A stretch of DNA of 64,000 nt from NCBI RefSeq assembly GCF_003334405.1, contig NZ_QOWM01000002.1, one strand, 5' to 3'. Both the position numbers and the translations under genes were made by a program. Positions 39,205-58,305 of the stretch are shown here, one piece after another. The notes beneath the pieces are model-generated. The model made no database searches. It was not told the DNA's origin and saw nothing but the letters and a program-made list of their open reading frames with translations. This stretch comes from Escherichia coli (GTDB taxonomy: Bacteria > Pseudomonadota > Gammaproteobacteria > Enterobacterales > Enterobacteriaceae). Each line of letters opens with the position of its first letter. Position 1 is the first letter of the stretch.

Positions 39205-39290
39205 ACTGCCTGATGCGCTACGCTTATCAGGCCTGGAAAGATGCACGATCGAGTAGGCGGGATAAGGTGTTTACGCCGCATCCGGCATGG
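39205..39290. repeat. REP/BIME palindromic elements
   Basis: 'gcctgatgcgctacgcttatcaggcc' and 'gccgcatccggca' motifs. Confidence 0.7.
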
Positions 39291-39358
39291 AAAACGCGTA
39301 CTTTGTTATCAATCTGGGGCCAGCAAATGCTGGCCTGATTTTTTCTTGAGGGAAGACT

Positions 39359-40078
39359 ATGATGCGCAAAATGCTGCTGGCGGCAGCACTTTCAGTGACG
39401 GCAATGACCGCTCACGCCGACTACCAGTGCAGCGTCACGCCGCGTGACGATGTGATTGTCAGCCCGCAAACCGTGCAGGTGAAGGGCGAAAACGGCAATC
39501 TGGTGATCACGCCAGACGGCAACGTGATGTATAACGGTAAGCAATATTCCCTGAATGCCGCCCAGCGCGAGCAGGCGAAGGATTATCAGGCTGAACTACG
39601 CAGCACGCTGCCGTGGATTGATGAAGGCGCGAAAAGCCGCGTCGAGAAAGCCCGTATTGCTCTGGATAAAATTATCGTTCAGGAGATGGGCGAAAGCAGC
39701 AAAATGCGCAGCCGTCTGACCAAACTTGATGCGCAGCTGAAAGAGCAGATGAACCGCATTATTGAAACGCGCAGCGATGGCCTGACGTTTCACTATAAAG
39801 CCATTGATCAGGTTCGCGCCGAAGGCCAGCAATTAGTGAATCAGGCAATGGGTGGAATTTTACAGGACAGCATTAATGAAATGGGCGCGAAAGCGGTGCT
39901 GAAAAGCGGCGGTAACCCATTACAGAATGTGCTGGGAAGCCTGGGGGGGCTGCAATCCTCAATCCAAACCGAGTGGAAAAAGCAGGAAAAAGATTTCCAG
40001 CAGTTTGGCAAAGATGTTTGTAGCCGCGTTGTGACTCTGGAAGATAGCCGCAAAGCCCTGGTCGGGAATTTAAAATAA
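39359..40078 (+). CDS. yggN: DUF2884 periplasmic protein
   Basis: 239 aa with signal peptide 'MMRKMLLAAALSVTAMTAHA'. Confidence 0.85.
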   Translation: MMRKMLLAAALSVTAMTAHADYQCSVTPRDDVIVSPQTVQVKGENGNLVITPDGNVMYNGKQYSLNAAQREQAKDYQAELRSTLPWIDEGAKSRVEKARIALDKIIVQEMGESSKMRSRLTKLDAQLKEQMNRIIETRSDGLTFHYKAIDQVRAEGQQLVNQAMGGILQDSINEMGAKAVLKSGGNPLQNVLGSLGGLQSSIQTEWKKQEKDFQQFGKDVCSRVVTLEDSRKALVGNLK

Positions 40079-40253
40079 TCCTCTATTTTAAGACGGCATA
40101 ATACTTTTTTATGCCGTTTAATTCTTCGTTTTGTTACCTGCCTCTAACTTTGTAGATCTCCAAAATATATTCACGTTGTAAATTGTTTAACGTCAAATTT
40201 CCCATACAGAGCTAAGGGATAATGCGTAGCGTTCACGTAACTGGAGGAATGAA

Positions 40254-41300
40254 ATGGAGTTTTTCAAAAAGACGGCACTTGCCGCACTGGTTATGGGTTT
40301 TAGTGGTGCAGCATTGGCATTACCCAATATCACCATTTTAGCAACCGGCGGGACCATTGCCGGTGGTGGTGACTCCGCAACCAAATCTAACTACACAGCG
40401 GGTAAAGTTGGCGTAGAAAATCTGGTTAATGCGGTGCCGCAACTAAAAGACATTGCGAACGTTAAAGGCGAGCAGGTAGTGAATATCGGCTCCCAGGACA
40501 TGAACGATAATGTCTGGCTGACACTGGCGAAAAAAATTAACACCGACTGCGATAAGACCGACGGCTTCGTCATTACCCACGGTACCGACACGATGGAAGA
40601 AACTGCTTACTTCCTCGACCTGACGGTGAAATGCGACAAACCGGTGGTGATGGTCGGCGCAATGCGTCCGTCCACGTCTATGAGCGCAGACGGTCCATTC
40701 AACCTGTATAACGCGGTAGTGACCGCAGCTGATAAAGCCTCCGCCAACCGTGGCGTGCTGGTAGTGATGAATGACACCGTGCTTGATGGCCGTGACGTCA
40801 CCAAAACCAACACCACCGACGTAGCGACCTTCAAGTCTGTTAACTACGGTCCTCTGGGTTACATTCACAACGGTAAGATTGACTACCAGCGTACCCCGGC
40901 ACGTAAGCATACCAGCGACACGCCATTCGATGTCTCTAAGCTGAATGAACTGCCGAAAGTCGGCATTGTTTATAACTACGCTAACGCATCCGATCTTCCG
41001 GCTAAAGCACTGGTAGATGCGGGCTATGATGGCATCGTTAGCGCTGGTGTGGGTAACGGCAACCTGTATAAATCTGTGTTCGACACGCTGGCGACCGCCG
41101 CGAAAACCGGTACTGCAGTCGTGCGTTCTTCCCGCGTACCGACGGGCGCTACCACTCAGGATGCCGAAGTGGATGATGCGAAATACGGCTTCGTCGCCTC
41201 TGGCACGCTGAACCCGCAAAAAGCGCGCGTTCTGCTGCAACTGGCTCTGACGCAAACCAAAGATCCGCAGCAGATCCAGCAGATCTTCAATCAGTACTAA
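40254..41300 (+). CDS. ansB: Periplasmic L-asparaginase II
   Basis: 348 aa; signal peptide; asparaginase motif 'ILATGGTIAGG'. Confidence 0.95.
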   Translation: MEFFKKTALAALVMGFSGAALALPNITILATGGTIAGGGDSATKSNYTAGKVGVENLVNAVPQLKDIANVKGEQVVNIGSQDMNDNVWLTLAKKINTDCDKTDGFVITHGTDTMEETAYFLDLTVKCDKPVVMVGAMRPSTSMSADGPFNLYNAVVTAADKASANRGVLVVMNDTVLDGRDVTKTNTTDVATFKSVNYGPLGYIHNGKIDYQRTPARKHTSDTPFDVSKLNELPKVGIVYNYANASDLPAKALVDAGYDGIVSAGVGNGNLYKSVFDTLATAAKTGTAVVRSSRVPTGATTQDAEVDDAKYGFVASGTLNPQKARVLLQLALTQTKDPQQIQQIFNQY

Positions 41301-57047: not shown

Positions 57048-57184
57048 GTCCTGTGTTACTTGAATCCGCTTAATTTAGCGGTGATAATCCGCCACAATTT
57101 ATTGTGACAAATCCAACCCTTCCTCGTCGGGCCTAACGACGCGGAAGGGTTTTTTTATATCGACTTTGTAATAGGAGTCCATCC

Positions 57185-58105
57185 ATGAGCACCTTAGGTC
57201 ATCAATACGATAACTCACTGGTTTCCAATGCCTTTGGTTTTTTACGCCTGCCGATGAACTTCCAGCCGTATGACAGCGATGCAGACTGGGTGATTACTGG
57301 CGTGCCGTTCGATATGGCCACTTCTGGTCGTGCGGGTGGTCGCCACGGTCCGGCAGCGATCCGTCAGGTTTCGACGAATCTGGCCTGGGAACACAACCGC
57401 TTCCCGTGGAATTTCGACATGCGTGAGCGTCTGAACGTCGTGGACTGCGGCGATCTGGTATATGCCTTTGGCGATGCCCGTGAGATGAGCGAAAAGCTGC
57501 AGGCGCACGCCGAGAAGCTGCTGGCTGCCGGTAAGCGTATGCTCTCTTTCGGTGGTGACCACTTTGTTACGCTGCCGCTGCTGCGTGCTCATGCGAAGCA
57601 TTTCGGCAAAATGGCGCTGGTACACTTTGACGCCCACACCGATACCTATGCGAACGGTTGTGAATTTGACCACGGCACTATGTTCTATACCGCGCCGAAA
57701 GAAGGTCTGATCGACCCGAATCATTCCGTGCAGATTGGTATTCGTACCGAGTTTGATAAAGACAACGGCTTTACCGTGCTGGACGCCTGCCAGGTGAACG
57801 ATCGCAGCGTGGATGACGTTATCGCCCAAGTGAAACAGATTGTGGGTGATATGCCGGTTTACCTGACTTTTGATATCGACTGCCTGGATCCTGCTTTTGC
57901 ACCAGGCACCGGTACGCCAGTGATTGGCGGCCTGACCTCCGATCGCGCTATTAAACTGGTACGCGGCCTGAAAGATCTCAACATTGTTGGGATGGACGTA
58001 GTGGAAGTGGCTCCGGCATACGATCAGTCGGAAATCACTGCTCTGGCAGCGGCAACGCTGGCGCTGGAAATGCTGTATATTCAGGCGGCGAAAAAGGGCG
58101 AGTAA
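57185..58105 (+). CDS. speB: Agmatinase
   Basis: 306 aa; arginase-family Mn-binding 'DAHTD', 'DIDCLDP'. Confidence 0.95.
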
Positions 58106-58109
58106 GCAC

Positions 58110-58305
58110 CAGATGCGATGCGCACGGGTAAAACGTGCCATTAATGTCGGATGCGGCGTGAACGCCTTATCCGACCTACGTTCGGCACCCGTAGGCCGGA
58201 TAAGATGCGCCAGCATCGCATCCGGCAATGCGCACAAGGTAACAAATGTGCCATTCATGTCAGATGCGGCGTGAACGCCTTATCTGACCTACGTTCGACA
58301 CCACC
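58110..58305. repeat. REP/BIME cluster
   Basis: Multiple 'gatgcggcgtgaacgccttatc' palindromes. Confidence 0.75.

Follow-up and report, generated by a model that had tools for sequence, protein, structure and literature searches.

Twelve REP units between five gene pairs of the Escherichia coli chromosomal backbone: four BIME-type clusters and a lone truncated copy

The DNA analysed here (called 'the window') is a stretch of 64,000 nucleotides from Escherichia coli (contig NZ_QOWM01000002.1 of assembly GCF_003334405.1), in which similar short palindromes recur between the genes yggL/yggN, yggM/hemW, yggR/ruvX, galP/metK and speB/loiP. The question raised by these palindromes is whether they are copies of the repetitive extragenic palindromic (REP) family, combined or not into bacterial interspersed mosaic elements (BIMEs), or something that resembles them, such as small RNA (sRNA) genes, terminators or a CRISPR array. 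A preliminary description of the window, made from the letters alone, had placed five REP/BIME clusters between these gene pairs (positions 39205-58305). They were resolved here as twelve REP (palindromic unit) copies, forming four BIME-type clusters and a lone truncated REP, the same as those of strain K-12 MG1655, and we put the probability of this reading at about 97%. REP identity was confirmed because the published REP consensus matched and because many other chromosomal sites carry the family.

The 13-mer quoted in the preliminary description, GCCGCATCCGGCA, was searched with up to two mismatches and gave 11 matches in the window, where 2.93 +/- 1.70 were expected (none of 100 shuffles reached 11). 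Nine of these matches were in the named gaps (39275; 42448, 42467 and 42558; 47005; 53044; 58145, 58215 and 58258), while the other two (38753 and 56126), each with two mismatches and inside coding sequence, were rejected as chance matches. The 13-mer is exact in four loci, as quoted, but not in speB/loiP, the units of which carry it only with one or two substitutions that are compensated on the opposite arm. Two queries that did not depend on the window were also used, the published 34-nt Z consensus GCCGGATGCGGCGTGAACGCCTTATCCGGCCTAC (PMC12306157) and the Y half of the Rfam RF02564 consensus; five Z units were found at 2 to 4 mismatches and three long units at 2 to 5 mismatches, respectively. 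Every match from both consensus scans, the check that the preliminary description had proposed, was inside the five gaps and none was elsewhere in the 64 kb (in block-shuffled sequence the mean was 0.03 hits). A profile built from the units (nhmmer) recovered the same 12, with nothing else at an E value below 0.7; two short-loop Y units (1a, 3a) and two degenerate ones (2a, 4a) were matched by this profile and not by the consensus scans (units are numbered by locus, in the gene-pair order given above). A weak match to 'GCATCCGGCAAC' in the divergent promoter region of mutY/trmB (38065-38087; 3.8 bits) has no palindrome and was not counted as a REP. REP units are thus present between all five gene pairs and, by consensus and profile scans, only there in the window; the gene names given in the preliminary description were right by the annotated genome, and its range fits the total of 12 hairpins, the first of which starts at 39206 and the last of which ends at 58292. 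The units, oriented so that the tetranucleotide GTAG stands at the 5' end, are as follows:

39206-39236, minus strand: unit 1a, a short-loop Y in which CCAG replaces GTAG (plus-strand sequence TGCCTGATGCGCTACGCTTATCAGGCCTGG; 19.8 bits)
39253-39288, plus strand: unit 1b, a Z with GTAG (GTAGGCGGGATAAGGTGTTTACGCCGCATCCGGCA; 33.6 bits; 3 mismatches to the published Z consensus)
42446-42480, plus strand: unit 2a, a degenerate REP-derived hairpin with GTAG present (GTAGCAGGATGCGGCGTTGACCCCGCATCCGGCA; 12.1 bits)
42484-42521, minus strand: unit 2b, a long-loop Y with GTAG (27.1 bits; 2 mismatches to the RF02564 Y consensus)
42536-42571, plus strand: unit 2c, a Z in which GTCG replaces GTAG (36.2 bits; 2 mismatches)
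46889-46919, minus strand: unit 3a, short-loop and Y-like, with GTAG (15.5 bits)
46931-46968, minus strand: unit 3b, a long-loop Y in which ATAG replaces GTAG (32.3 bits; 5 mismatches)
46983-47018, plus strand: unit 3c, a Z in which GTGT replaces GTAG (33.5 bits; 4 mismatches)
53043-53075, minus strand: unit 4a, a lone truncated Z (26.9 bits, model positions 7-36 only) with neither stem foot nor GTAG
58143-58179, minus strand: unit 5a, a Z with GTAG (38.5 bits; 2 mismatches)
58191-58228, plus strand: unit 5b, a hybrid with GTAG, its stem (GCCGGAT) of Z type and its loop, GATGCGCCAGCATC, long and Y-like (27.1 bits; 5 mismatches to the Y consensus)
58256-58292, minus strand: unit 5c, a Z with GTAG (stem GTCAGAT/ATCTGAC; 36.5 bits; 4 mismatches)

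Units 1a and 1b, joined tail to tail by a 16-nt linker, make up a BIME in the 3' untranslated region (UTR) of trmB-yggL. Locus 2 (yggM/hemW) spans 42446-42571, with a 14-nt linker between 2b and 2c, and 8 nt separate the end of its last hairpin, 2c, from the stop codon of hemW (42579-42581, minus strand). At locus 3 (yggR/ruvX) the hairpin of unit 3a begins 9 nt after the yggR stop codon (which ends at 46882), and units 3b and 3c with the 14-nt linker between them make a module of 98 nt with 90% identity to 2b plus 2c (repeat family D1). Locus 5 (speB/loiP, 58143-58292) has an 11-nt tail-to-tail linker between 5a and 5b and a 30-nt head-to-head linker between 5b and 5c, and contains a direct duplication of linker plus REP (58131-58196 and 58244-58309, 113-bp spacing, 88% identical; family D4). 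The five clusters of the preliminary description thus came down to four BIMEs, as galP/metK holds a single truncated REP, which is part of the metK 3' end and lies some 345 bp upstream of the galP start codon.

Folded as DNA, the units form an outer stem of 7 bp, a bulge where AA faces GC, and an inner stem-loop, and the family is marked by just such an imperfect palindrome of 30-40 nt with an AA/GC mismatch bulge in the stem (PMC8266576, PMC3333891). AA (alignment columns 12-13) and GC (columns 28-29) were invariant across the 10 aligned full units; the exceptions to the bulge are the truncated unit 4a and unit 2a, the left arm of which is the complement of its right arm, so that the bulge is gone. 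Mean column identity among the units was 77%, loop and bulge included. The outer-stem cells were paired in 98.8% of cases, a figure that dropped to 19-44% when the partner was slid by 1 to 3 columns. Compensatory changes were seen at two stem pairs, one changed from C-G to U-A in four units (the stem GTCGGAT/ATCCGAC of unit 5a carries such a compensated change, C-G to T-A in DNA) and the other occurring with four Watson-Crick types; the covariation score and the number of doubly changed cells were reached by none of 500 shuffles. RNA folding of whole loci gave z-scores of -2.8 to -6.8, on either strand.

The five gaps were identical to those of MG1655 over their whole length: 183/183 (yggL/yggN), 154/154 (yggM/hemW), 183/183 (yggR/ruvX), 423/423 (galP/metK) and 205/205 (speB/loiP). 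Subtracting the window position from 3,140,982 gives the K-12 coordinate, and the five loci correspond to 3,082,690-3,101,776 in MG1655, where REPs of the same sequence, flanked by the same genes, stand at 3,101,694-3,101,776 (yggL/yggN), 3,098,411-3,098,536 (yggM/hemW), 3,093,964-3,094,093 (yqgF(ruvX)/yggR), 3,087,907-3,087,939 (3' end of metK) and 3,082,690-3,082,839 (loiP/speB); the window copies show no difference from them. The RefSeq feature tables of a matching strain and of MG1655 contain no repeat_region rows for these REPs, and a literature search with these gene names and 'repetitive extragenic' found no paper.

Every one of the 5,426 complete E. coli genomes contained the 90-bp Y-linker-Z module of locus 2, the median being at least 38 places per genome (a lower bound, the places being listed in part for 2,751 records). 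Among the matches listed, 190,675 places were chromosomal and 151 were on plasmids. The family to which the units belong is therefore chromosomal and dispersed, each genome carrying tens of copies or more, and K-12 is reported to carry about 600-700 REP units (PMC3333891; preprint bioRxiv 10.64898/2026.03.23.713779). That the elements would be ordinary for E. coli, as first described, is borne out by these figures and by the complete identity with K-12.

The loci lie in conserved E. coli backbone (window 38-60 kb, from trmB-yggL to speB / loiP): a 20-kb query had 100% identity to several complete genomes and at least 80% coverage in 5,375 of 5,426. By the gene map of an identical genome that is annotated (window position = locus position + 37,499), the order is mutY / trmB-yggL / yggN / ansB / yggM / hemW-rdgB-yggU-yggT-yggS (reverse) / yggR, followed by ruvX-yqgE-gshB-rsmE-endA-yggI-galP-metK (reverse) / yqgD-yqgG-yqgB-speA-speB / loiP (reverse) / tkt. 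All 12 units are intergenic, and the gaps that bear them are convergent (three) or tandem (two), never divergent, in agreement with the published REP distribution of about 60/40/1% (bioRxiv 10.64898/2026.03.23.713779). All five loci sit at the 3' ends of transcription units, and in this sense they do mark operon boundaries, as had been proposed.

By the definitions of Gilson, Bachellier and Hofnung, as summarised by Ton-Hoang et al. 2012 (PMC3333891), loci 1, 2, 3 and 5 are short-linker BIMEs. Loci 2 and 3 look like BIME-2, and locus 5 is better called 'atypical' than a textbook BIME-2, because of its hybrid unit and its 30-nt head-to-head linker. The window elements share with BIME-2 and atypical BIMEs (PMC3333891) the inverted Y and Z across a short tail-to-tail linker (16 nt at locus 1, 14 nt at loci 2 and 3, and 11 nt at locus 5) and the tandem modules that vary in number between strains while sequence at one locus is conserved; they differ in that yggL/yggN has a single copy of its pair, which did not vary among the 9 genomes compared. 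BIME-1 (RIP/RIB) identity was rejected, as the linkers are short (11-16 nt) and the integration host factor (IHF) site pattern WATCAANNNNTTR was unmatched in all five loci. Pseudomonas REPINs, or RAYT-associated REPs (Bertels and Rainey 2011, PMC3116915), likewise consist of two inverted REPs that form a larger doublet capable of a hairpin, with mobilisation presumed to be by a single-copy domesticated Y1 transposase, but are a different sequence family, the E. coli REPs being of the long, bulged group 2 (PMC8266576).

The element REP325, with its RNA naRNA4 (RF02564; Qian et al. 2015, PMC4550694; Harris et al. 2026 preprint), has the same Z-linker-Y block and 3' UTR position as the window loci. 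REP325 is built of six repeats of 77 bp in which the linker is always 12 nt, and it stands between yjdM and yjdN, which are in tandem; the window loci have one to three units and other linkers, and convergent genes flank three of them. The core of the REP325 'Z2' hairpin (RF02564 consensus) is nearly equal to that of the REPtron oligonucleotide of PMC3479197, and the legend to Figure 1a of that paper has the units of the REPtron coloured only as y and z1.

The likeness to REP325 also bears on whether the yggM/hemW element at 42448-42518 could be a separate sRNA gene, a paralogue of naRNA4, an HU-binding RNA with a part in condensing the chromosome. The RF02564 model scored 60.9 bits there, just above its gathering score of 59.5, and about 80% of E. 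coli REPs are reportedly transcribed (PMC4550694). RF02564 is itself, however, one Z2-l-Y repeat of the BIME REP325 (PMC4550694), so that any BIME scores, and three other loci indeed matched below threshold (30-54 bits), only galP/metK being without a match. The match at 42448-42518, moreover, has non-standard pairs in its first hairpin (2a), lacks the AA/GC bulge and misses 6 linker positions, and no promoter-like site was found next to it in a scan. We therefore regard the naRNA4 score as a sign of BIME membership, not as evidence for a distinct sRNA gene, which is very unlikely. Apart from naRNA4, the only Rfam match at the five loci was a weak one to BASRCI337 (19.8 bits, E = 0.47), spanning the galP/metK REP.

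Stable hairpins at the 3' ends of transcription units would also be expected of ordinary Rho-independent terminators, which could look alike merely through being GC-rich hairpins. No REP hairpin is followed by a T-run, though, and none was reported by a terminator scan, which found separate terminators beside two REPs only, at 39317 (yggL) and 53102 (metK):

39317-39344, plus strand: intrinsic terminator of trmB-yggL, not a REP, downstream of the BIME (GGGCCAGCAAATGCTGGCCT plus T-run)
53078-53102, minus strand: intrinsic terminator of metK, not a REP (AAAGGCCAGCCTCGCGCTGGCCTTT plus T-run), directly followed by unit 4a on the transcript

A column identity of 77% that includes loop and bulge, in elements found at tens of places per genome, would not be expected of unrelated terminators either, and their identity as such is highly improbable. 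As for remnants of a CRISPR array or of another system of spaced direct repeats, with which the preliminary description had warned the elements could be confused, the resemblance lies in short, similar, palindromic repeats within a few hundred bases of each other at four loci. It does not extend further: orientation alternates from unit to unit, linkers are irregular (11-30 nt), no locus has more than three units, the flanking genes are housekeeping genes, and the program TRF found no array of regularly spaced direct repeats. The probability of a CRISPR origin is accordingly next to nil, and REP units remain the reading adopted for all five loci.

To compare strains, the region was taken from eight more genomes, at different levels of the similarity ranking, and REPs were counted in each gap. 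The yggL/yggN gap (183 bp, two units) and the REP at the 3' end of metK were constant in all compared genomes, and the yggR/ruvX gap contained two or three units (114-190 bp). The yggM/hemW gap had one hairpin in BL21, O157:H16 Santai, APEC O2:K1 and S1-IND-01-B (64-68 bp), three units in the window and K-12 (154 bp), five in O157:H7 (242 bp), and no REP in two strains where an operon for a tripartite ATP-independent periplasmic (TRAP) transporter, with or without ISEc20, fills the gap; the sole hairpin of the short allele is unit 2a. The speB/loiP gap had three units (205 bp) in most strains and seven (429 bp) in S1-IND-01-B, and no REP where the dagR-dga operon of a phosphotransferase system (PTS) or a DUF1266 gene occupies it. 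Alignment of the alleles showed that whole Y-linker-Z modules, bounded by repeated CCGCATCCGGCAAT, are gained. In BIME-2 and atypical BIMEs, copy number is likewise described as differing among strains, with copies within one locus alike (Ton-Hoang et al. 2012, PMC3333891).

Some further observations were made on these gaps. The TRAP alternative to window 42425-42578 is an operon of three genes, ISEc20 and a permease pseudogene being added in one case (comparison locus L003, 3726-8380; L009, strain GIMC1405:EC_Lstone01, 3725-6927), and the allele types of yggM/hemW diverge from the first base past the yggM stop codon. The alternatives to window 58106-58310 (speB/loiP) are the 7.5-kb dagR-dga (D-glucosaminate PTS) operon or the DUF1266 gene (L003, 24787-32416; L009, 23273-25069). 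The long linker of speB/loiP has a small hairpin of its own (GCACG...CGTGC at 58122-58138 and GCACA...TGTGC at 58232-58251), which is duplicated with the module and co-amplified in strain S1-IND-01-B. In the yggL/yggN gap of GIMC1405:EC_Lstone01 (499-639), RefSeq has a 46-aa 'hypothetical protein' across the BIME, probably an open reading frame mis-called inside the REP pair.

Outside the REP-bearing gaps, the speA/speB gap (window 57048-57184) holds a 732-bp lipoprotein/hypothetical gene in many strains, which is missing from the window, K-12 and BL21; a strong hairpin with a T-run at 57117-57156, just upstream of speB, is present in both allele types and was missed by the simple terminator scan. 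The first 17 kb of the window match the glcD-yghO backbone, from which the window breaks at 17009, and an island of about 13 kb (about 17010-30616) extends from there to a tRNA gene (30544-30616, minus strand). At least 80% of a 14-kb island query was found in only 37 of 5,426 genomes, and the island is annotated with a Qat anti-phage system (QatC), a KAP-family P-loop NTPase and a tyrosine integrase.

What the REP units may do at these loci can be proposed from published work on the family. The units would be transcribed within the 3' UTRs of yggL, yggM, the hemW operon, yggR, ruvX, speAB and loiP, where their RNA hairpins would stop exonucleases that work 3' to 5' and thereby stabilise the message upstream, and they may attenuate read-through between convergent or tandem genes, partly through Rho. 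As the terminator scan found no canonical intrinsic terminator in the three convergent gaps, the BIME is probably the main element forming 3' ends there. Units 2c and 3a, at 8 and 9 nt past the stop codons of hemW and yggR, fall in the range (within 15 nt of a stop codon) where, according to Liang et al. 2015 (cited in PMC12306157), REPs stall terminating ribosomes and lower translation. At the DNA level, the transposase TnpA-REP (RAYT, a tyrosine transposase) requires GTAG and the bulge (PMC8266576, PMC3333891). GTAG is found in seven of the 12 units (1b, 2a, 2b, 3a, 5a, 5b and 5c), and the six that have kept the bulge as well (1b, 2b, 3a, 5a, 5b and 5c) are potential TnpA-REP substrates. Gain and loss of modules would be explained by TnpA-REP, or else by the repeated CCGCATCCGGCAAT ends slipping or recombining unequally.

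Several points weigh against this picture. GTAG is absent from five of the 12 units (1a with CCAG, 2c with GTCG, 3b with ATAG, 3c with GTGT, and the truncated 4a), and by the rules published from in vitro work these units and the bulge-less 2a are probably not substrates of TnpA-REP. The decay of GTAG is normal within the REP family, but it matters for recognition by TnpA-REP, the gene for which is not in the window. Every functional step proposed above for these copies, furthermore, is carried over from the family. A more specific suggestion is that the differences in module number between strains (1, 3 or 5 hairpins at yggM/hemW and 3 or 7 at speB/loiP) could act as a heritable, non-coding dial on how strongly the convergent neighbours are expressed, through protection of mRNA 3' ends and control of read-through, with the REPs near stop codons damping translation of hemW and yggR; this we consider possible but rather doubtful.

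The elements are already known, and their importance for the biology of E. coli is small beyond correct annotation: marking them flags the 3' ends of five transcription units and stops mis-calls as CRISPR-like repeats, sRNA genes or terminators. The proposed dial, if true, would be a locus-specific instance of ideas put forward for the family and not a new kind of element, and the natural allele series at yggM/hemW and speB/loiP could be used to relate REP number to mRNA stability and read-through.

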